Sequence record: ON210137.1 | DNA: 64,000 nt | Source: Escherichia phage EC150 | Strand: one strand, 5' to 3' | Shown here: positions 1 through 11,018 of the stretch, piece after piece | Layout of the letters: the number at the start of each line of letters is the position of its first letter | Position numbering within the stretch: the stretch's first letter is position 1 | Notes under the pieces: generated by a model | Databases searched by the model: none | The model's input: the letters and a program-made list of their open reading frames with translations, nothing else | What the model was told of the DNA's origin: nothing | Made by a program: the position numbers and the translations under genes

Positions 1-38
1 GCACGATGCTGACCAGACTTTAATTCAATGGGTAAGGT

Positions 39-464
39 TTGATAACACTGGCGGCGGCAAGTATCGCTACTATGGCGATGAGCGATTCACCACTAAATTC
101 TATAAGGTACTCGACCATGGCTCATGTTAAAGACGAAGTGTTGTTTGGCGCAGAGATTAAGAAACGTGTCAGAGAAATGGCAGGAGAAGAAATAATGAAG
201 CCGCTGCGAAAAGGTTTTGATCACATCAATGGCGTATCCGGCACGAAGGAGATGGGCGTGTTGGTAAAAGACATCCGCATTGGCGATGTCATGGTCATCG
301 ACCGACAAGCACGAGTCGTTATCCAGGTGCAACCGAACGATGGTGAAGGTTGCGTCCTATTGAAGCTGAAGAAGCTTTCATCCAGCCCAGCAAAGGCCGT
401 CATCAAGAAGGTATGGCCCGAAGGATTACGCAAACTCATTCGTCGACCTGTGGAGAATGTGTGA
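39..464 (+). CDS. hypothetical early protein (141 aa)
   Basis: Long ORF at window edge, first of a tightly packed same-strand array; stop overlaps next start; no recognisable motif. Confidence 0.45.
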   Translation: MITLAAASIATMAMSDSPLNSIRYSTMAHVKDEVLFGAEIKKRVREMAGEEIMKPLRKGFDHINGVSGTKEMGVLVKDIRIGDVMVIDRQARVVIQVQPNDGEGCVLLKLKKLSSSPAKAVIKKVWPEGLRKLIRRPVENV

Positions 465-700
465 TGGAAGATTATATCAACGCCATGTATATGGCATTCT
501 ATGTCGTGCAACTTCCCAATGGCGCGGTATTCTATGGCGAGTATACCTTTGACGTTCAATATGACGTTTCAGAGCGTACAGTGTTAACAAGGGAGTTGAT
601 TGCGGACCTTAAGGACGACATCAAGCGCGTCGCGCGGCAGCAGTTCAATTTGGATGACACCGTCATCGTTCGAATTACCGGAATAACAGAGGTGCAGTGA
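464..700 (+). CDS. hypothetical protein (78 aa)
   Basis: Start adjusted to internal ATG that overlaps the upstream stop (TGATG); same-strand array. Confidence 0.45.
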   Translation: MEDYINAMYMAFYVVQLPNGAVFYGEYTFDVQYDVSERTVLTRELIADLKDDIKRVARQQFNLDDTVIVRITGITEVQ

Positions 701-1029
701 TGACCCGTGATCAGATACTCGCCGCGCATGAGCGTGAAAAGGTTAAAGAGATTTGGAAAAGGCACAACTACTTTGCCGAATCCTATTATTTCTTAAAGAA
801 GTGCATAAAGGAAAATGCAAAGATGGACAGTACAACATTAACATTTCGTTTATCTCCACATATAGCAAAGCTTAATGCGATATGCGCTTGTCGACTAGCA
901 AGTATGAAGTTCGATAGAGGAAATGACGGAGAGTTGACCATCTATCGATTCTCCCACCGGACCGGAGACACGAAGATAACAAGGACGCGTGAAGAGCTGG
1001 AGATTGACCTACTCCACTATGTAAAATGA
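700..1029 (+). CDS. hypothetical protein (109 aa)
   Basis: ATG 7 nt after GAGGTG, overlapping upstream stop; followed by hairpin plus U-tract. Confidence 0.5.
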   Translation: MTRDQILAAHEREKVKEIWKRHNYFAESYYFLKKCIKENAKMDSTTLTFRLSPHIAKLNAICACRLASMKFDRGNDGELTIYRFSHRTGDTKITRTREELEIDLLHYVK

Positions 1030-1038
1030 ATATCAAAA

Positions 1039-1068
1039 AGGTGAGCTAAATGCTTGCCTTTTCTTTTA
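1039..1068 (+). terminator. rho-independent terminator, copy 1 of a duplicated terminator-promoter element
   Basis: 8-bp stem AGGTGAGC/GCTTGCCT (two G-U pairs, so it folds only in plus-strand RNA), 5-nt loop TAAAT, then TTTCTTTTA. Confidence 0.5.
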
Positions 1069-1114
1069 TCAATACTTATACTCTTTTCATCAAGACTAAC
1101 AAGCGAGGTGAATT

Positions 1115-1363
1115 ATGGAACGTTATATAGATGCAGAGTGCTTGATAAGTGCAGGTTTGAATGAGGCTGTAGAAGGAAGTAAATATGCCATCTGTCAATC
1201 TGATTATCCGTACAAAGATACTTTTTGGATTGAATTTGGATCAAAAGGGAGTAAGCACCACGCCACTTATGACGTTTGGAAAGCACCAAGCGGACTTTTT
1301 TACATTTTAAAACGTCATTGCCAGCCAGAGTCAGGCGTATTGGCTGTCTTCAAGGAGGTGTGA
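1115..1363 (+). CDS. hypothetical protein (82 aa)
   Basis: GAGGTG ribosome-binding site a few nt upstream of ATG. Confidence 0.5.
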   Translation: MERYIDAECLISAGLNEAVEGSKYAICQSDYPYKDTFWIEFGSKGSKHHATYDVWKAPSGLFYILKRHCQPESGVLAVFKEV

Positions 1364-1365
1364 TT

Positions 1366-1683
1366 GTGATTTACTTAGGCATCGACCAGGAACAAGACGA
1401 GCGGTTAGGAAGCGTGTTAAACGTAGACTTGAACACAGCTGTACACATCAAGCCTTGGCCAGAGGACCACGGCGACGTAGTTGTACCCGTTGCGCCTTGG
1501 ACGCGTTACGTTGCCATTGACAATAACGGCCTTGTTCATTGTTACTCAGAAAGGCCAACGTATTTCGAGATGTACCGCGAATGGCTGATGACTAGTTGGG
1601 CAAAGGTGCGCTGTTGCGGCGAAGTCGGCCTGGAGGGGTGGAGCTTCGAGGCTAGTGAATCGTGTGTCGAGGTGAAATTATGA
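1366..1683 (+). CDS. hypothetical protein (105 aa, GTG start)
   Basis: GTG 7 nt downstream of AGGAGG, directly after upstream stop; Trp/Cys-rich product. Confidence 0.4.
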   Translation: MIYLGIDQEQDERLGSVLNVDLNTAVHIKPWPEDHGDVVVPVAPWTRYVAIDNNGLVHCYSERPTYFEMYREWLMTSWAKVRCCGEVGLEGWSFEASESCVEVKL

Positions 1684-1898
1684 ATGCCGTGCTGGGTAAG
1701 CTGTCTTTCAACAAGCGCAATGAGTTGCGCATGGTGTCTCGTTTTCAATTTTTATTAAATGCTATGTCAAGCGTTGCCATAGCAATGCTTCGCGCTGATT
1801 GCCCTGCTGAAAAGCGTGAGACTTTATTCAAGCGTCACCAACAATTACGAAATGCTGCTTATAAACTGCAGCAATATGCTATGGAGTATGCAAAATGA
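1680..1898 (+). CDS. hypothetical protein (72 aa)
   Basis: Start adjusted to internal ATG overlapping upstream stop (ATGA). Confidence 0.45.
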   Translation: MNAVLGKLSFNKRNELRMVSRFQFLLNAMSSVAIAMLRADCPAEKRETLFKRHQQLRNAAYKLQQYAMEYAK

Positions 1899-2287
1899 GA
1901 ATGAAGCGTTGCCCTTACTGCCACGATGTAATGCATCTTCCACATGAAGAGTTTGTGCAGCACATGACTAATTGTGATAAGAATCCTAAGAGCGAAAGCC
2001 AGCTTGAAGAAAGAATGTTTCTGGTGTCGTTTAAAGCTTCTGCCTATGGCGTGAAACTGGCTTATGGCGCGAGCGGCGCACCAAGTGCTATCAACTGCCC
2101 AACGACATTGAGAAGTGAAATCGACTCGATGCAGCTTGCGGCTTGGATTAACGTCAAGGAAGGCCTCACGCCGCACTTCATCGCGCGCATCCAGTCCCAG
2201 ATTCTTCAAATCAAGCGCGAATACAACCGCGACGTTACTGAAGTGAAGGTCTTGTCCATCACGCCGATGAATAAGGAGCTGGCTTGA
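1895..2287 (+). CDS. hypothetical protein, possibly zinc-binding (130 aa)
   Basis: CPYCHD...H...C Cys/His cluster near N-terminus; ATGA overlap with upstream gene. Confidence 0.5.
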   Translation: MRMKRCPYCHDVMHLPHEEFVQHMTNCDKNPKSESQLEERMFLVSFKASAYGVKLAYGASGAPSAINCPTTLRSEIDSMQLAAWINVKEGLTPHFIARIQSQILQIKREYNRDVTEVKVLSITPMNKELA

Positions 2288-2544
2288 ATAAGGGACCGAT
2301 GGCGCCACTGGCCCTTGCCGCGCGGAAGCTTCGACAGGCCGTTAATGGGTCGCGGCCCGTGGTGTTAACACTAGACGATGCAAAGGCACTGGTAGAGCTA
2401 CTCGACGAGAACAACCGACGCAAGAATAGAGAGAACACATTAAAGTACCGCGTCACGCCAGCCGGACGCGAGTGTGAAAAGAAAGCTTACTTGCGGCGTA
2501 AGTTAAGGTCAGTCGGTCTACACGAAGAAGCCGACCAGATTTAA
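2284..2544 (+). CDS. hypothetical protein (86 aa)
   Basis: ORF in same-strand array with start overlapping upstream stop; followed by terminator copy 2. Confidence 0.45.
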   Translation: MNKGPMAPLALAARKLRQAVNGSRPVVLTLDDAKALVELLDENNRRKNRENTLKYRVTPAGRECEKKAYLRRKLRSVGLHEEADQI

Positions 2545-2551
2545 TTCGAAA

Positions 2552-2580
2552 AGGTGAGCTAAATGCTTGCCTTTTTATTT
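2552..2580 (+). terminator. rho-independent terminator, copy 2 of the duplicated element
   Basis: Same stem-loop as 1039-1059 (AGGTGAGC TAAAT GCTTGCCT) followed by TTTTTATTT. Confidence 0.5.
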
Positions 2581-2622
2581 GTCTGTATTATACTTACTTC
2601 ATCAAGCAAAGGAGAGGTTATT

Positions 2623-2928
2623 ATGAGTACCGAAGCTATGAAGAGCAAGTTGTTTGAGGTGATGCAGCCCGCTGTCGAGTGCGGAGCTATTCAGGAGTTC
2701 AAAGAGACGCAAGAAGGCGGTGAGCCAGTATTCTTCTTCAAGAACAAGAAAGGTGCGGCGGCTGCGGTGATGCTCTTGAAGAACAGCGACACGACCTTTA
2801 TCCTTTGCGCAGGCGGTTATGACCTTGTTGCCGATGATGCCTACATCACCTGTGCGACGGGTCTTAATCCTATGTTAACGTTTGAGCGTCGCGGCATTCG
2901 TGTTGCGACGTTTGGAGGCGGTTTATGA
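2623..2928 (+). CDS. hypothetical protein (101 aa)
   Basis: Start adjusted to internal ATG 5 nt after AAGGAGAGG. Confidence 0.5.
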   Translation: MSTEAMKSKLFEVMQPAVECGAIQEFKETQEGGEPVFFFKNKKGAAAAVMLLKNSDTTFILCAGGYDLVADDAYITCATGLNPMLTFERRGIRVATFGGGL

Positions 2929-3110
2929 GCACCGAAGTCCATAACGCATCAGCACTGGTAAGCTTTTACCGAAACAAAGGCGTGTCGCTAGTTAAAACGC
3001 CGCAAGGCATGCTGTTCTTTGGCACGCGATTCCTTAAGGCTTCGGAGCGTGAAACGCTGTCTAAATTCGACCAGAAGACATTACACGCAGTTTGGAGAAG
3101 ACAGCAATGA
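2925..3110 (+). CDS. hypothetical protein (61 aa)
   Basis: Short ORF with start/stop overlaps on both sides. Confidence 0.35.
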   Translation: MSTEVHNASALVSFYRNKGVSLVKTPQGMLFFGTRFLKASERETLSKFDQKTLHAVWRRQQ

Positions 3111-3307
3111 CATCAAATCTTAAGGCCCGTTTATTATTCATCAAGCCGCATGTGCCGTATAAGATTAGTAAGCGCACCTGGATTAACATTTACAACCGCA
3201 GCGGCGACCGTTGTTTGTACAAGGCAAAGCGGCGCAAGAAGGTATATTTAAAGGCTGTGATGTCGCAACCCGTCGATGCATTCAACATCGGCGAAAATGA
3301 ACTGTAA
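3107..3307 (+). CDS. hypothetical basic protein (66 aa)
   Basis: Internal ATG overlapping upstream stop (ATGA); track ORF begins with TTG at 3092. Confidence 0.4.
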   Translation: MTSNLKARLLFIKPHVPYKISKRTWINIYNRSGDRCLYKAKRRKKVYLKAVMSQPVDAFNIGENEL

Positions 3308-3339
3308 ATCGGCTATCAAATTGAACTCGGAGTAAAGAA

Positions 3340-3849
3340 ATGAAAATCGAACAACTCGAAGCAGTATTGGAAATGGCTGTAAAGGCAGGCGCAATCAGAA
3401 GCTATAGCCGCGAGAAGTCGGATGACGCTGCGCACTTTTGTCGCAACTTCTATATCGTCGGCAACCTTAATGACCACTACACCATCGAGTGGTATACTAA
3501 TATGATGGCTCTTAAGTCGCGCACCATGGAGCTTTGGTGTGATGATGTCTGCTTATCCAACACCCATCCATCCTACGACGTTGCGTTAGCATTCTATTAC
3601 GGAAGCCGTCAACCTGTCGCCCACATCGGTGAGAAGTATGAGCACCTTAAGGCGCGACCAGAGGAATCAATGGACGGTTGGATTTATTGGGCTGGCGTCA
3701 ACAATCCTGTTCCTGGTAAGAAGGTCATGTTTAAATTGCGCTTCGGCTATGAATCTAAATCACCTGCTCTTTCAGATGATTTGAGATGGGAGATTGTTGA
3801 CGATGCTTATGCAACTGACATCATTGCTTATCGAGTCATGGAGGAATAA
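3340..3849 (+). CDS. hypothetical protein (169 aa) sharing a C-terminal domain with 5004-5429
   Basis: C-terminal ~58 aa (W.G.NPVPGK.V.F.L..GY.SK...SD.L.W...AYRV) is paralogous to the C-terminus of the 5004-5429 product. Confidence 0.55.
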   Translation: MKIEQLEAVLEMAVKAGAIRSYSREKSDDAAHFCRNFYIVGNLNDHYTIEWYTNMMALKSRTMELWCDDVCLSNTHPSYDVALAFYYGSRQPVAHIGEKYEHLKARPEESMDGWIYWAGVNNPVPGKKVMFKLRFGYESKSPALSDDLRWEIVDDAYATDIIAYRVMEE

Positions 3850-4190
3850 TGGAAGAGCAAGAAGGCCGTGAGCTAACGTTCGACGAGCAAATGCAAGAGC
3901 TTCAGCGCACATCGTCGCTGCGCGGTAAGGTTGTTGACATCGAGGCGAGCGAATCCAACCTCACCCAGTGGCGGCTCAAGTGCACCAGCACAAGCAAGGA
4001 TATGTTAAGCTTCAAAGTCGGTCAGACTTATTTGCTTTATGAGGCAAAAGGACTTATTATTGATGGAAGGCAAATTGTCTTCACGGTAGTCAGCGGAATG
4101 CATTGGTTCGTGAAGCGTGATGTCGAGGGCCGTGACATGTTTGTCGCAGGATTTCCAGAAACAAGATTCCAATTGGAGAAGGTTAAATGA
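3849..4190 (+). CDS. hypothetical protein (113 aa)
   Basis: ORF in same-strand array; start abuts upstream stop. Confidence 0.5.
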   Translation: MEEQEGRELTFDEQMQELQRTSSLRGKVVDIEASESNLTQWRLKCTSTSKDMLSFKVGQTYLLYEAKGLIIDGRQIVFTVVSGMHWFVKRDVEGRDMFVAGFPETRFQLEKVK

Positions 4191-4519
4191 AATTGAAATG
4201 GTACGTGGACCCTGAGACGACAGGCTCATACAGGTCATTCCAACGTCGCGGCTGGCCGATTTGTTACAGCGGCAATCCCGATAAAGAAGACTGCGAGATG
4301 CTCGCCGCGATAGTAAGTCTTAATCATGACGGCTATGAAGGCCACTACGCGAGAGCAACCAACCTTCGGCTCAAGGTGCGCATCCATTTCAAGGTCGCAG
4401 GCGAGGACCGCACCGGACTCTCCAAAGAAGAGTTCAGCAGCATTGCCGAAGCAAAGGCATGGCTAAAGGCGTTCTACAAGGCCAATCCTAAATTTTATCC
4501 AACTAAGGGTGCATCATGA
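4187..4519 (+). CDS. hypothetical protein (110 aa)
   Basis: ORF in same-strand array; ATGA overlap. Confidence 0.5.
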   Translation: MKLKWYVDPETTGSYRSFQRRGWPICYSGNPDKEDCEMLAAIVSLNHDGYEGHYARATNLRLKVRIHFKVAGEDRTGLSKEEFSSIAEAKAWLKAFYKANPKFYPTKGAS

Positions 4520-5962: not shown

Positions 5963-6209
5963 TGAATAAACGAACACTGTTTACGTGTTTTGAAGAATGG
6001 AATGTGTGCAATGGGTCGCTTTATGCGGCCTTTTGTCGTTTGGGTCGTGTTTTGCGATGGAATAATTATGATGAGGTGTTTTATTTATTGATTGTGCGGA
6101 AATATTTAGAAATATATTTCATAGGTCGTGTCTATTGGTCCGTGGTGTTTGTTAGATTATATCTATGGATTGAAATTTTAGTGTCGTGAAACGTGGTGTT
6201 TGAACACAT

Positions 6210-6575
6210 TTGATACGCCTAAAATACGGCTAAAAATTAAGCGTATCATGGCTGCAGGCCGCGTCGTTCCTGGATTCTTCTTTTTAAAATTGGTACACCC
6301 TTACGTCATGATACGTCATGGTTTTTTATCCGTATCAGTGTACAGCCCTTGCCGCGCCTGGCTTGTACATTAATCTTACGGATGATACGGATAAAACTGG
6401 GCATCGTTATATATAAAACTCCAAAAATAAATAAACTCCATTTTAAAAACATTTATATTAATTTTTTTCATATCCTCATACTTATGTTAATTTATATATT
6501 TAACGTATCATCCGTAAGATATAAGTAAAAACAAAGACTTGCGGCAATACGGATGATACGTCATGATACGCTTCA
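6210..6575. repeat. repeat-flanked AT-rich element, copy A
   Basis: Multiple copies in both orientations of CGTATCATCCGTA / TACGGATGATACG (9-mer unit TCATCCGTA) flanking a ~100-bp AT-rich core (6400-6500); homologous to 22190-22460. Confidence 0.6.
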
Positions 6576-6717
6576 ACCAGCCAGCAGCGGCTAAGTCATT
6601 GATTTGCATAACAAGCGGCGAAAGGGATGGATTTCTTTTATACGTATCAAACAGTACACCACGCACCACGGTCCGCTATTCATTCAGTACTATGATTTGT
6701 GTACGTTTACAGCCAAT

Positions 6718-6746
6718 TTGAACATCAATCTGCACTTGAATATAAT
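6718..6746 (+). promoter_or_regulatory. sigma70-type promoter, near consensus
   Basis: TTGAAC, 17-bp spacer, TATAAT, about 50 bp upstream of the ATG at 6799. Confidence 0.55.
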
Positions 6747-6774
6747 GTTCATTCATTGTATAATTCACACTATT

Positions 6775-7981
6775 AATTTGCACTATGGGATTTGCACTAT
6801 GAGTCAAGATTATGTAGCAATGCCTGAAGACTTTGAAGACCCGCGATTTGCAGAGCATAATCAGGCATTATTCGATGAGTTCATTGACCTTGTTATTCAG
6901 GGCCATGACATGCGCGCAGCTTTTGCACTAGTATTTGGCATGGAGGTTGCGACCGATAACTACACTGGCCAGCGAGTCCTCTGCACGCAACGCAATCCGT
7001 ACTACAAGATGCGCTACAAAAAGCGTATGGAAGAGATGCCATTGAAGGAATTGTGGAGCGTAAAGAGTTCCATCCACAATTTAGTGAAGCTTGTGCGTGA
7101 TCCAGAAGTCGCGGCGTCAGCCAAGCTTAATGCCATTCGTGAACTGAATATCATCTACGGCATCACGATGATTGATGAGAATGGCAATAGTAAAATGGGC
7201 CGTTCCATGGACGATTTCTACAAGGATTTTGGAGAGGCAGCCAAAGAGGGTGAGCAATTCTCCCGCCACTAGCCAATTTGCACTATAAAACGGCCCTAGA
7301 ACACATTTTCTCCACTTCTAGGGCCATCGGTAATACGACGGGGAAGGTTACAACCATAAACGCGTTAGAAAGTGTATTATTATAAGTCATCTTTTAGTCA
7401 CTTTACGTAACAATTTACGACCTTCCGCCGTCCAGTCGAACGACTCCACCAGCAGATTTGCACTATAACCTAAGACGATGCGCCCTTTCTCGTTATCGAC
7501 CCGCCAACAAGTCTCGAATAGCATTCGATTTGCACTATTAACTATCGCCGCAACGCGCGCTGGGTAAGCGCAATTTGCACTATGGTCGTAAAGGGATAAG
7601 GTGCGACCACTTCCGATGGACAACGTAGCGATGAGAATAAGCGTATTCATAAGCCACCAATTTGCACTATGAAAAGCGACCCCGAAGGGCCGCCATTCGA
7701 TTAGATGATCTGGAATGTGTATGACTTGTTGCCGAACTCGAAGTTCAAGCGCCCAGCTTCCTTAAGCTTCATGCGGAAGCGAATGTGCTTGCTATCCGGT
7801 AATCCCAGCGCGATGAAAGCTACGCGGACCGATTTGAACTCGCCTACACCCTCGACCATAACGCCGTTACGGGTGAGACGCTTTTGCGCCACTTCCTTAT
7901 TATCCCAACTTTTTGCAATGCCTTCGCTATTCGAACGGCGATGGGAAGAAGTTCCATTTTGCACTACGCAATTTGCACTAT
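6775..7981 (+). repeat. array of 9 same-orientation copies of an AATTTGCACTAT-like 11-12-mer
   Basis: Copies at 6775, 6790, 7275, 7456, 7528, 7572, 7659, 7956 and 7970; irregular spacing; two copies overlap the start of the 6799 gene. Confidence 0.6.
6799..7272 (+). CDS. hypothetical protein (157 aa), possible regulatory or DNA-binding protein
   Basis: ATG embedded in a motif copy and downstream of the near-consensus promoter; function is inference only. Confidence 0.5.
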   Translation: MSQDYVAMPEDFEDPRFAEHNQALFDEFIDLVIQGHDMRAAFALVFGMEVATDNYTGQRVLCTQRNPYYKMRYKKRMEEMPLKELWSVKSSIHNLVKLVRDPEVAASAKLNAIRELNIIYGITMIDENGNSKMGRSMDDFYKDFGEAAKEGEQFSRH

Positions 7982-8327
7982 CGTTTAGGCCGCTCTTAAC
8001 GAAGGCTTCATACTCTTCGTCGGTCATCGCGTCGAGTTCTTCCTGAGTCGGCTCAGACTTTTTAACGACCGCACGCGCCTTATGCGTTTTTACATCGCTG
8101 GGCACTTCCTCGCGCGGCTTCGCGTCGGGAATGGGCGATTCGTTGGACGGCTCATCGAGCGCGTTCAAGGACTCGATTAACGCGATTACGCGAGTCTCGG
8201 CGGTCCGGCGGTCCGCGAACTTTTTAATCGGCTTCGAACCGGAATTTGCGTTGTAAAATGCAACGAGGTCGGCGGTCTTAGTTGCGATAACGTCGCCGCT
8301 AGTCGAGAAGCGATTTAAGCTAACCAT
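7701..8327 (-). CDS. hypothetical protein (208 aa)
   Basis: AGGAG 6-7 nt upstream of start at 8327; 5' half CpG-rich like the adjacent island; 3' part overlaps two motif copies so extent is uncertain. Confidence 0.5.
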   Translation of the reverse strand: MVSLNRFSTSGDVIATKTADLVAFYNANSGSKPIKKFADRRTAETRVIALIESLNALDEPSNESPIPDAKPREEVPSDVKTHKARAVVKKSEPTQEELDAMTDEEYEAFVKSGLNDSANCVVQNGTSSHRRSNSEGIAKSWDNKEVAQKRLTRNGVMVEGVGEFKSVRVAFIALGLPDSKHIRFRMKLKEAGRLNFEFGNKSYTFQII

Positions 8328-8407
8328 AATAAACTCCTATTTGTTAGGGCGCTAAGCGCGAAAGAATTTTATTAAAGCGCCGCGCACGACGCTCTTAAAA
8401 TCCTCTC

Positions 8408-8692
8408 TTACGCTTCGACGAGGGAGAAGGTTTCAAATTCTTCTTCGCCCATAACGAGTAAAATATTCCCGATTTCGACCGCTTCGAAGAAGTATCCGTT
8501 AACGTTTACTTCGAAGGCTTCGCGGTCCGATTCCGGTAACGCCGCGTAAAGTTTAAAAGCCTCGGCGACCGTTACCCCACCCGCTTCGATAGTTTGGTCT
8601 ACGTTCGCGGCGTAGACTTCGGATAAATTTTGTTTTACGCCGTAGTTCTCGACGATAGCGTTACGGATAGAAGAAACGTTAAGAATAGCCAT
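8408..8692 (-). CDS. small acidic protein (94 aa), paralog of 9326-9616
   Basis: N-terminus and V.(V/I)NG(Y/F)...(V/I)EIG block align with the 9326-9616 product; conserved leader CTCCCAACTAGGAG upstream. Confidence 0.55.
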   Translation of the reverse strand: MAILNVSSIRNAIVENYGVKQNLSEVYAANVDQTIEAGGVTVAEAFKLYAALPESDREAFEVNVNGYFFEAVEIGNILLVMGEEEFETFSLVEA

Positions 8693-8832
8693 TTTAAACT
8701 CCTAGTTGGGAGAGGCGTTAACGACCTATTCGTTAACTCATCCCGTCCCGATATGAGTACATTATAATATAGTGTAGAAAAAAGTAAAGCACTTTTTCGA
8801 TAAAAATGCGATAAATTATTTTATCTTTTTCC

Positions 8833-8860
8833 TTTACTTCTTCGTACACTCGCGTATACT
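8833..8860 (+). promoter_or_regulatory. sigma70-like promoter, duplicated element copy 1
   Basis: TTTACT, 16-bp spacer, TATACT; whole ~45-bp unit (CTTTACTTCTTCGTACACT ... TTTATATCGAGA) repeated at 9229-9272. Confidence 0.4.
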
Positions 8861-8915
8861 TGTTTATATCGAGACGGGCGATGGCCTTCCTTCTACTAGC
8901 ATCGGGAGTTTTATT

Positions 8916-9218
8916 ATGACTACTTTAATCTCTTCTATCCTTACTTACGACGAAGACCGTTTAACCGTTCGTTCTCTTATCGCCGCCGTTAACGCGGAAC
9001 TAGAATCCACCATCATTAAGGTCCGCGCGGTCGCTTTCGTCGGCCTTTCCTTCGACGATATTAAGTATGCCGAACGTAGCGCCATCCGCTTCGCGAAGAC
9101 CGACGACGAAGCCGTTACCCTTATCGAGACGGTTACGCCGCGCGGCGAAGCGTTAATTATCGTCGAGTATATCGACGTAGAGGGCGATAAGGCTTATAAA
9201 TATTTTATCGCAAAATAA
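8916..9218 (+). CDS. small acidic protein (100 aa)
   Basis: ORF with its own copy of the duplicated promoter; CpG-rich codon usage unlike the rest of the window. Confidence 0.5.
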   Translation: MTTLISSILTYDEDRLTVRSLIAAVNAELESTIIKVRAVAFVGLSFDDIKYAERSAIRFAKTDDEAVTLIETVTPRGEALIIVEYIDVEGDKAYKYFIAK

Positions 9219-9229
9219 CGAAAAAGTGC

Positions 9230-9258
9230 TTTACTTCTTCGTACACTAAGACTATAAT
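9230..9258 (+). promoter_or_regulatory. sigma70-like promoter, duplicated element copy 2
   Basis: TTTACT, 17-bp spacer, TATAAT; same unit as 8832-8874. Confidence 0.4.
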
Positions 9259-9325
9259 GTTTTATATCGAGAGGGGAGAGGAAGCGAATAGGTCGCCTTC
9301 CCGCCCTCCCAACTAGGAGAATATT

Positions 9326-9616
9326 ATGATTACTTTATCCGCTATCCGTTCCGCTCGCGTCGAGACTTCCGAAAACTCTAACGTATTTGGCGAAACCTTA
9401 GAGAGCGTTTATCTCTCTAACGTCGACGCGACTATCGAATCTATTTATGAGCCGATCAACTTCCTCGACCTTTACAAGTATCGCGACGAGGACATCGTAT
9501 CATCCCGCGTAACTATCAACGGCTTCGTCTATACGATTACCGAAATCGGCGGCGAATATATCGCGGTCCCGCAACTCGGCGGCGAAGTAACTTATTTTAA
9601 AATCGTCTCCTTATAA
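9326..9616 (+). CDS. small acidic protein (96 aa), paralog of 8408-8692
   Basis: Aligns with the 8408-8692 product; AGGAG RBS inside conserved leader CTCCCAACTAGGAG. Confidence 0.55.
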   Translation: MITLSAIRSARVETSENSNVFGETLESVYLSNVDATIESIYEPINFLDLYKYRDEDIVSSRVTINGFVYTITEIGGEYIAVPQLGGEVTYFKIVSL

Positions 9617-9781
9617 TACCCTTCCGTTACTAATAGGCCGCGCTTAGTCGCGGCTTTTCTTCGTCCCTATCCCGATGCGCGTCTACGCGAAAACTCCTTT
9701 ATCCTTCCCTTCGTCGTCGCATAATCTTCTTCGAGATGCTCCTTAGTTCGCATAACAGGTATTACGTTAAATGGAGAACAT

Positions 9782-9854
9782 CGCGTAAGTCCTTGTTTTA
9801 TATAGACACCTATATCGGACCGTTAGGGCGGGTCGCGTAAGTCGTTGTTTTATA
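9782..9854. repeat. 21-bp direct repeat, 2 copies
   Basis: CGCGTAAGTCCTTGTTTTATA at 9782 and CGCGTAAGTCGTTGTTTTATA at 9834. Confidence 0.4.
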
Positions 9855-9979
9855 AAGGCGCAAAACTTTCCCTTCGTTCCGAACTAAAACGAGAAATGTG
9901 CCGACCCTTCGCCCGAAAATAGTACGTATGCGAAATTACATGCATCTCGAATAATCCCTCCCGATATTATCCTACACGC

Positions 9980-10042
9980 AATCATTCGCTTTCGAATCAT
10001 TATGCTTCATATTGTTATGCGTCGAATCATTCGCTTTCGAAT
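9980..10042. repeat. 18-bp direct repeat, 2 copies
   Basis: AATCATTCGCTTTCGAAT at 9980 and 10025. Confidence 0.4.
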
Positions 10043-10131
10043 TGTAACGCTGGAAACTGTAACGGCGATTGATTATTGCGTTCGTGTGGTTTTTATGGCA
10101 TGGGTCTTTTGGTGCGTTTTGGTACTTGATG

Positions 10132-10244
10132 AAATTTGCAGTACACTAATCAAAATACGACACATTTGGTCCACTAACTTTTCAAAGAAAAAGTCCTAGA
10201 CAGTACCGTACTATTTTGTACCCACAGGAAATTTGCAGTACACT
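10132..10244 (+). repeat. 16-bp direct repeat, 2 copies, related to the AATTTGCA motif family
   Basis: AAATTTGCAGTACACT at 10132 and 10229. Confidence 0.4.
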
Positions 10245-10314
10245 CCTGCGCGGCAGGCAAAACAAAGGGCCGCACTAAGCGACCCACGATTCACGGTTAA
10301 ATCAGCAACACCCA

Positions 10315-10695
10315 CTATTCGCTCTTATGGGCATCACCAAAGCCATCCGCAATCTGGCTGATCAATGATTCAATGGACACAGTTTTACCAATTGATCGAG
10401 CGGTAATAGCAAGCATATTATCAATCAAACCATGATTGGATGCGTATGGTTCAGGTTTTGAATCATCTTCAGGACAACCAAAAAGCTGGTCGCGCAAACT
10501 TTCGAGAGAACGCTCAACATTTTCCAACTTCTCTTCTAAATCGGATTGGCGACGTAAAACCCATGTCAAGTCACGGTTGCCAACTTCCAATCCATCAGAA
10601 TAGCAAGGTGGAGCGTCAATTTTGTTGCTGGAACCAAAAGCAGTGCCGCTGCCTTTAGTATAAGTATGGCTCATAGAATCATTTTTATTTGACAT
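10315..10695 (-). CDS. hypothetical protein (126 aa)
   Basis: Minus-strand ORF in accessory block; no recognisable domain. Confidence 0.45.
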   Translation of the reverse strand: MSNKNDSMSHTYTKGSGTAFGSSNKIDAPPCYSDGLEVGNRDLTWVLRRQSDLEEKLENVERSLESLRDQLFGCPEDDSKPEPYASNHGLIDNMLAITARSIGKTVSIESLISQIADGFGDAHKSE

Positions 10696-10769
10696 ATCAT
10701 TACCTTTAATATTTGGTGATTAACAATAACTATAATAAAGCCGCATAGCGCGGCATTCAAATCGATTTA

Positions 10770-11018
10770 TTAATTGTGACGATTGGATTCATCAATCGAT
10801 ACCAATTGTGCAGGGTTGCCGGATACCGTTGCGCCGATGATTCCCATTTGAGAGAAAAATTCTGAATAAACCTCTTTCCAGTACTTGCGCGCTGCTTTCT
10901 GGGCTTGACCTTTGCGCTTATAACTTTTGCCTTGAAAGATGAAGCGGTCTTTTGGAGCGTAATACTCCACCACACCTTCCAGCCATTGTAAGAATGCTAC
11001 TGATTCATTTTTATTCAT
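10770..11018 (-). CDS. hypothetical basic protein (82 aa)
   Basis: Minus-strand ORF in accessory block. Confidence 0.4.
   Translation of the reverse strand: MNKNESVAFLQWLEGVVEYYAPKDRFIFQGKSYKRKGQAQKAARKYWKEVYSEFFSQMGIIGATVSGNPAQLVSIDESNRHN

Follow-up and report, generated by a model that had tools for sequence, protein, structure and literature searches.

What is the role of a gene-free stretch of about 700 bp that lies between two convergent genes and holds three pairs of direct repeats? The question is raised by positions 9617-10314 of a 64,000-nt sequence of Escherichia phage EC150 (record ON210137.1), called here the window. The original prediction, made from this sequence alone, suggested that the stretch may encode small RNAs or act as a regulatory or recombination hotspot. 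Comparison with related genomes indicates that it contains the right boundary of a direct terminal repeat (DTR), that is, a physical end of the genome, a point which the original prediction missed. We give a somewhat better than even chance (about 0.55) to the possibility that the stretch is a cos/pac-like region, with putative terminase recognition and cleavage signals at the DTR end.

The genome end within the stretch

Judged by sequence, the window belongs to Wifcevirus, a genus of Escherichia coli myophages related to PB1. A blastn search with positions 9000-11000 returned 28 near-full-length matches (85-96% identity), every one of them to a Wifcevirus myophage of E. coli or Shigella, with Bas101, WFC, WFH, Mansfield, and ECML-117 among them. 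Wifcevirus is distantly related to Pbunavirus, the PB1-like phages of Pseudomonas (bioRxiv 10.1101/2024.09.12.612763).

The DTR itself is already known for this genus. Terminal repeats of ~3.7 kb were described for WFC and WFH by Korf et al. (PMC6563267), and a repeat of ~3.7 kb was predicted with PhageTerm for Mansfield (PMC6753283). The ends were compared here within records that carry both DTR copies, these copies being identical; the Mansfield record has one copy, predicted by PhageTerm (MK903282, repeat_region 1..3673). The repeat is 3784 bp long in WFC, 3899 bp in SP13, 3533 bp in Ro157lw, 3701 bp in WFH, and 3673 bp in Mansfield. In window coordinates, the left end is common to all five records and falls at 6439|6440 (...AACTCC|ATTTTAAAAAC..., the repeat beginning with ATTTT). 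The first base of the WFC record is exactly position 6440, the start of the Mansfield record is near-identical, and the SP13, Ro157lw, and WFH records begin at the same junction. The right end, independently determined, maps to 10109|10110 in four of the five, namely SP13 (with one ambiguous base), Ro157lw, WFH, and Mansfield, and to 10190|10191 in WFC. By homology, 10109|10110 (...GGGTCTTT|TGGTGCG...) would be the right physical end of the virion DNA. The WFC end lies inside a small hairpin, AACTTTTCAAAGAAAAAGTCC (window 10176-10196; WFC ~3770-3790), and may reflect either real variation or an assembly choice.

With these two ends, the DTR of this phage would measure ~3.67 kb. On this basis, 9617-10109 would be the last non-coding ~490 bp of the DTR and 10110-10314 the first ~200 bp of unique DNA, which divides the stretch into 493 bp within the repeat and 205 bp outside it. 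The window carries a single copy of the DTR. The repeats annotated in Mansfield, WFC, and WFH are the same element, and their boundary maps inside this stretch; the corresponding records and papers give only the length and coordinates of the repeat, to which the present analysis adds the array and motifs found at the boundary. The architecture of this boundary, including the array, the presence of CAGTACAC at both ends, and the conservation across genera, goes unmentioned in the papers and records consulted.

A homologous end is present in another genus. In Pantoea phage Kyle (Kylevirus), the genes follow the order seen in the window, and the record includes both copies of a 3603-bp DTR. The right end of this repeat lies at the base homologous to 10109|10110, with Kyle ...GTGTGCCCTT|GACCGCGATTTAGTACCTGGTCCAATTTCACAGTACACTAATCAG aligning base for base with ...ATGGGTCTTT|TGGTGCGTTTTGGTACTTGATGAAATTTGCAGTACACTAATCAA of the window, and the homologous left junction is also seen. 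An annotated Kyle gene, gp008 (3438-3641), overlaps the array described below and extends across the repeat boundary; since it is annotated in the left DTR copy only, this open reading frame (ORF) was probably called in error.

The stretch lies between genes that converge on it, 9326..9616 on the plus strand (stop at 9616) and 10315..10695 on the minus strand (stop at 10315), and the claim that it is gene-free was borne out. It contains no conserved ORF, and several genomes have disrupted versions of the small ORFs of either strand. The only ORF predicted earlier (10002-10199), already suspected to be spurious, is intact in 12 of 20 related genomes and lacks third-position bias; across the aligned relatives, no small ORF of the stretch has an excess of substitutions at third positions. 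Because the ORFs are broken among relatives and show no codon-position bias, the stretch is considered truly non-coding.

The left end, 6439|6440, likewise lies in a gene-free and AT-rich stretch of ~760 bp (6040-6798). It contains a dense set of TGATACG/CGTATCA repeats, which form inverted repeats placed more or less symmetrically about the left end (for example, arms 6363-6389 and 6504-6530, 85% complementary). A consensus site for IHF occurs nearby, at 6592-6604.

Repeats at the boundary and their conservation

The three repeat pairs are real, and each is absent elsewhere in the window; by our own estimate, ~1e-5 or fewer exact 17-18-mer repeats would be expected by chance in 700 bp. They had been described as unrelated; all three are present, but the second pair, the exact 18-mer AATCATTCGCTTTCGAAT (9980-9997 and 10025-10042), is not isolated and forms part of a degenerate tandem array with a period of 15 bp. 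This array occupies 9978..10109, extending up to the DTR end, and is composed of 8-13 short phased units. Its core, AAT[C/G][A/G]TT, is a 7-bp palindrome about its central base, and the two 18-mers are its best units, three periods apart. The program TRF reports 9980-10042 as a repeat of period 15 with 4.2 copies, and the autocorrelation of 9960-10109 has maxima at lag 15 (z = 5.3) and lag 45 (z = 6.2). A periodicity score corrected for coding periodicity has its window-wide peak at 9941-10090, ~6 standard deviations above the mean. As at a terminase site, repeated short sites thus lie directly beside the cleavage position, the array ending at the cut.

Arrays with matching period and core adjoin the homologous boundary in Kyle and in Pantoea phage PA1. 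The strongest 15-bp periodicity of both loci is found at homologous places, adjoining the DTR end, and the last 200 bp inside this end show autocorrelation peaks at lags 15, 30, and 45; PA1 has nine cores, with spacings that are mostly exact multiples of 15. Within Wifcevirus, Bas100 lacks exactly 45 bp (9980-10024), which is one repeat-to-repeat interval or three array units. The array, the cut, and the first copy of the motif described below are bracketed by an 11-bp perfect inverted repeat, AAAATAGTACG (9916-9926) and CGTACTATTTT (10207-10217). Both arms are invariant in the alignment of 20 Wifcevirus genomes that served for comparison within the genus, although such a repeat could arise by chance (~0.2 expected in the 1.4 kb scanned, by our own estimate).

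The third pair, given earlier as 16 bp long, is present as an exact 17-mer, GAAATTTGCAGTACACT, at 10131-10147 and 10228-10244 on the plus strand, and sits within a longer conserved unit, TTTTG(G)TAC-N-GAAATTTGCAGTACACT. Copy 1 belongs to a boundary motif, TTGGTAC-N-GAAATTTGCAGTACACTAATCA, located just outside the DTR (10119..10152, plus strand). In a form of ~20 nt, GAAATTYRC(N)GTACACT, the motif occurs twice each in the window, Kyle, and PA1. Copy 1 keeps a fixed offset outside the right DTR end in Wifcevirus and Kylevirus, while the distance to copy 2 is variable: 97, ~340, and ~460 bp in the window, Kyle (copy 2 at 3964), and PA1 (copy 2 at 6464 in the reverse complement of locus L155), respectively. 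Between the two copies, Kyle has a small annotated minus-strand gene, and PA1 has apparent ORFs.

A shorter sequence links this motif to the other end of the repeat. CAGTACAC occurs only three times in 64 kb, all on the plus strand, and each copy lies rightward of a DTR end: the one at 6652 (6652..6659) is within the repeat, at +213 from its left end, and those at 10139 and 10236 follow the right end at +30 and +127, respectively. Kyle has AGTACACT at +184 and CAGTACAC at +204 from its left end. The tetramer GTAC is about twofold under-represented across the window (123 observed against ~247 expected); it is most densely clustered at 10121-10270, with the second and third densest clusters on either side of the left end.

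The first pair is the 21-mer CGCGTAAGTCSTTGTTTTATA (9782-9802 and 9834-9854, one mismatch), contained in 25-nt units, TCGCGTAAGTCSTTGTTTTATAWAG, at 9781-9805 and 9833-9857, which are 92% identical and 52 bp apart. Each of the 20 aligned Wifcevirus genomes has both copies, with a mean pairwise diversity (pi) of 0.029, and a profile of this segment found no match in Kylevirus. The 21-bp pair is a conserved, genus-specific element, and it may bind a protein other than the terminase.

In the 20 genomes, pair 2 drifts by point changes and pair 3 is retained with point variants. For the whole stretch, pi is 0.042, with a minimum of 0.017 in the 67 bp just inside the DTR end, while at third codon positions of ten neighbouring genes it is 0.05-0.37, mostly 0.09-0.20. 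The stretch thus diverges ~3 times more slowly than neighbouring third codon positions, which indicates purifying selection on this non-coding DNA and agrees with the earlier view that it is functional rather than filler.

Between genera, conservation is concentrated at the boundary. Over the 44 nt beyond the DTR end, the window and Kyle are 79.5% identical at the same offset from the end, whereas identity is only 43% for their small terminase (TerS) proteins, and the small neighbouring gene (96 aa) cannot be aligned. A three-way alignment shows the same boundary block in PA1. A profile of the 20 Wifcevirus sequences matches Kylevirus only over ~9917-10160 (PA1, E = 9e-12; Kyle, E = 1.4e-8), and one of the boundary motif (10119-10152) gives E = 8.5e-7 for PA1 and 1e-4 for Kyle; 10148-10314 has no counterpart in Kylevirus by profile search. 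In IMG/VR, the 21-mer and 17-mer pairs were found in Wifcevirus contigs only. The 14-mer CAGTACACTAATCA gave more than 120 matches there; among the loci compared, only Kyle resembled the window in its flanks, besides known Wifcevirus contigs.

The site kept in Kyle and PA1 is absent from the syntenic region of one headful relative, Pbunavirus E217; the array and motif were not found in the syntenic region of Serratia phage KKP 3709 either. JG024, which belongs to the same genus as E217, was reported to be circularly permuted (PMC10913387). The absence in E217 therefore fits a link between these elements and fixed-end packaging, as far as a single comparison goes.

Putative packaging signals and other explanations

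What the compared genomes show is where the DTR ends (by homology), how the boundary is built, and how far it is conserved within and between genera. We propose that the array and the boundary motif act as cis-acting packaging signals. Two convergent intrinsic terminators would shield ~600 bp of the stretch from transcription from both sides. The first, at 9635..9665 (plus strand; stem 9635-9656 with eight pairs, six of them G-C, then a T-rich tail), closes the plus-strand DTR genes and is annotated at the homologous position in Mansfield, WFC, and WFH. The second, at 10258..10285 (minus strand; stem 10285-10267 with seven pairs, six of them G-C, then TTTGTTTTG), closes the minus-strand accessory/tail-fibre block and is also annotated in WFC and WFH. 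The 15-bp-phased array of palindromic AATSATT-type sites, in the last ~130 bp of the DTR, could be a docking platform for the terminase, most simply for the ring-shaped TerS encoded in the same DTR. The GTAC...CAGTACACTAA motif lies 12-40 bp beyond the DTR end, and the GTAC/CAGTACAC elements to the right of both DTR ends may help to position the cuts at 10109|10110 and 6439|6440.

The candidate binding protein is encoded at 6799..7272 (plus strand), within the DTR. Its product matches the entry 'Small terminase' of PDB 7UXE (phmmer, E = 1.3e-32), which is the decameric TerS of Pbunavirus E217 (PMC9611059), and the orthologue is labelled terminase small subunit in the Mansfield record. As the gene lies within the DTR, the virion DNA would carry terS twice. 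The large terminase gene is distant from it, an arrangement also reported for E217.

We infer the identity of the binding protein, and a role of its binding in directing cleavage, from the established behaviour of cos and DTR packagers, exemplified by the R sites of λ cosB and by pacB of T7/T3. The λ cos region consists of cosQ, cosN, and cosB, with repeated sites R1-R3 for TerS (gpNu1). The region described here resembles it in having a non-coding genome end, repeated short sites beside the cut, and a further element across the cut; the repeated sites dock the small terminase in λ, and their counterparts here are putative docking sites. In contrast, λ has 12-nt cohesive ends in place of a 3.7-kb repeat, and three 16-bp R sites with an IHF site in place of 8-13 units of 15-bp period in a region that lacks an IHF consensus. 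The two regions are not similar in sequence. At the concatemer junction of T7/T3, pacB, the cut sites, and arrays of short repeats flank a terminal repeat of 160-230 bp. Shared features are exact direct terminal repeats with fixed ends, recognition sequences (candidates in the present case) and short-repeat arrays beside the boundary, and a repeat that must be duplicated during packaging. The repeat analysed here is, however, ~20 times longer and carries genes, including terS, its motifs are unrelated, and this phage has no known RNA polymerase or promoter requirement.

Several observations weigh against a packaging role. The boundary of this isolate is transferred by homology from mapped or duplicated ends of relatives, and the WFC record's right end lies 81 bp further to the right. 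The left and right boundary regions share nothing beyond CAGTACAC/GTAC: k-mers of at least 9 nt common to both were not more frequent than in shuffled sequences. The motif statistics are post hoc, and a packaging role does not account for the 21-bp pair or the segment 9666-9960. To our knowledge, the 15-bp period matches no established TerS spacing. In addition, the TerS of E217 had no appreciable DNA binding in vitro (PMC9611059).

A more specific version, in which the 8-13 AATSATT sites form a wrapping track for the decameric TerS ring and CAGTACAC is a 'ruler' that sets both cuts, is speculative and rather doubtful at present. If true, it would provide a defined natural DNA substrate for a small terminase and account for the measuring of a long terminal repeat that carries genes. 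The way in which small terminases recognize viral DNA is still unsettled (PMC9611059). The TerS of E217 has a solved decameric structure and no known DNA site, and a conserved phased array at a mapped genome end is a concrete candidate substrate for binding, footprinting, and cryo-EM work. Through the boundary, the formation of fixed 3.7-kb repeats could also be studied. Wifcevirus phages are candidates for use against pathogenic E. coli, and their true ends are needed to assemble, reboot, and engineer them, while most deposited Wifcevirus genomes are opened elsewhere and lack a repeat annotation.

Conserved repeats at the inner end of a terminal repeat are also known from T5, and the stretch might be a cis element of early infection, acting not in packaging but as an injection stop signal that halts or regulates DNA entry, or in early end-processing. 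In T5, 'Repeat Region 3' spans 1.2 kb of repeats that are not translated; most of it belongs to the left terminal repeat, with 270 bp reaching into unique DNA, and its conservation exceeds that of the ORFs of the repeat. Paired DnaA boxes were proposed as its conserved hallmark (Davison, bioRxiv 10.1101/866236). The layout described here is parallel: untranslated repeats, more conserved than the neighbouring genes, stand at the inner end of the long DTR (493 bp inside) and overrun into unique DNA (205 bp outside). However, this explanation seems unlikely. The paired DnaA boxes and large inverted repeats of the T5 region have no equivalent here; the five DnaA boxes (TTWTNCACA) of the window all lie outside 9600-10320, and there is no sequence similarity to T5. 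Among the DTR proteins, no counterpart was detected of the pre-early proteins A1/A2, on which the two-step injection of T5 depends; no Pfam family was detected in them, and two match PHROGs of unknown function. Moreover, the DTR encodes TerS, a late function, and we know of no report of two-step injection for these phages. An entry signal would also leave unexplained why the array stops exactly at the cut. A packaging region could nevertheless double as a T5-like checkpoint of DNA entry in a myovirus, which we mention as a possibility.

The repeats could instead be transcriptional elements, that is, promoters or operators, or small RNAs, with pair 3 acting as tandem plus-strand promoters and pair 1 as activator-dependent ones. 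Both copies of pair 3 can be read as a weak sigma-70 promoter (TTGGTA or TTGTAC, a 17-bp spacer, and TACACT), and TACACT is retained by every one of the six copies found in three genomes. On the other hand, neither site is called as a promoter in a consensus scan, conservation of the -35-like hexamer breaks down in copy 2 of Kyle and of PA1, and transcripts would run antisense into minus-strand genes with no terminator. As the pair motifs occur nowhere else in the genome, they do not constitute a general promoter class. Sigma-70 readings of pair 1 were rejected, as they lack any -35 element on either strand, and minus-strand promoter readings of pair 3 were unconvincing.

The small RNAs suggested by the original prediction found no support. 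The stretch has no Rfam match and no good promoter-terminator pair; at a permissive E-value, the best Rfam match over 9400-10500 (E = 0.49, chance level) falls on a terminator. In RNA structure prediction, 17 of 18 folding windows were unremarkable (|z| of 1.6 or less), and the single outlier contains the known terminator hairpin. This outlier, the minus strand of 10145-10294 (-50 kcal/mol, z = -3.5), combines that hairpin with two more, and the second copy of the 17-mer falls in one of these. Divergence among the relatives is too low for RNA structure to be tested by covariation. A candidate long-range stem (9727-9754/9927-9954) was discarded, as relatives carry uncompensated substitutions at 9730, 9942, and 9948. 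The strong fold and the constraint on the stretch would suit a transcribed element, yet on balance a transcriptional role appears improbable.

Even less probable is a replication origin in which the phased array provides iterons for an initiator. Eight to 13 short phased direct repeats in non-coding DNA would be suitable for this purpose, and origins are often conserved and gene-free; nonetheless, a 15-bp period is atypical for iterons, and the stretch has no DnaA box, no IHF consensus, no adjacent AT-rich unwinding element (GC ~0.42-0.44), and no neighbouring initiator gene. Nor would an origin account for the exact coincidence of the array's end with the DTR end in two genera.

The earlier idea of a recombination hotspot holds only to a limited extent, in the 45-bp loss of Bas100, the insertion of a 69-aa gene in six relatives, and the expansion of a heptamer in Mansfield. 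The same events, namely a repeat-mediated deletion, a variable (ACCCACG)n at 10282, and a gene present or absent at 9605/9606, together with a mosaic allele of the 96-aa gene, could suggest that the repeats have no dedicated function and are debris of slippage and duplication in a recombination-prone spacer between modules. The conservation data disfavour this explanation, which we regard as very improbable: pi is ~3 times below that of neighbouring third codon positions, and the array and motif keep a fixed position from the DTR end in a genus whose proteins are 43% identical or unalignable. The heptamer, ACCCACG at 10282-10288, lies beside the minus-strand terminator and is repeated in tandem six times in Mansfield; a single additional copy, nearly identical, is found in each of SP13, F13, and Bas99.

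Surroundings of the stretch

As proposed earlier, the stretch divides two blocks of different composition, with a CpG observed/expected ratio of 2.0-2.3 over 7900-10000 and ~1 beyond 10100. The high values cover the right ~2 kb of the DTR (7900-10100), genes and non-coding DNA alike, against a window average of 1.12, and the fall to ~1 occurs just past the right DTR end. Searched with blastn, 5,426 complete E. coli genomes gave no match to the stretch, which is therefore not host-derived. A search for related loci with the neighbouring 126-aa protein found only four genomes, all already known, while the 208-aa protein encoded in the DTR has homologues throughout the PB1-like group.

The genes next to the stretch vary among relatives. 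The 69-aa gene is located at 9605/9606, just before the plus-strand terminator, in FEC19, ECML-117, Eco4M-7, SP13, Ro157lw, and F13 (for example, 4129-4338 of locus L010 and 3191-3400 of locus L011); it is called a 'transcriptional regulator' in some records and is absent from this window. The 96-aa gene has two strongly divergent alleles among relatives, which points to mosaic exchange ending near 9600. Within the DTR, the small genes 8408-8692 (minus strand) and 9326-9616 (plus strand) are paralogous, with 33% identity (E = 2e-6).

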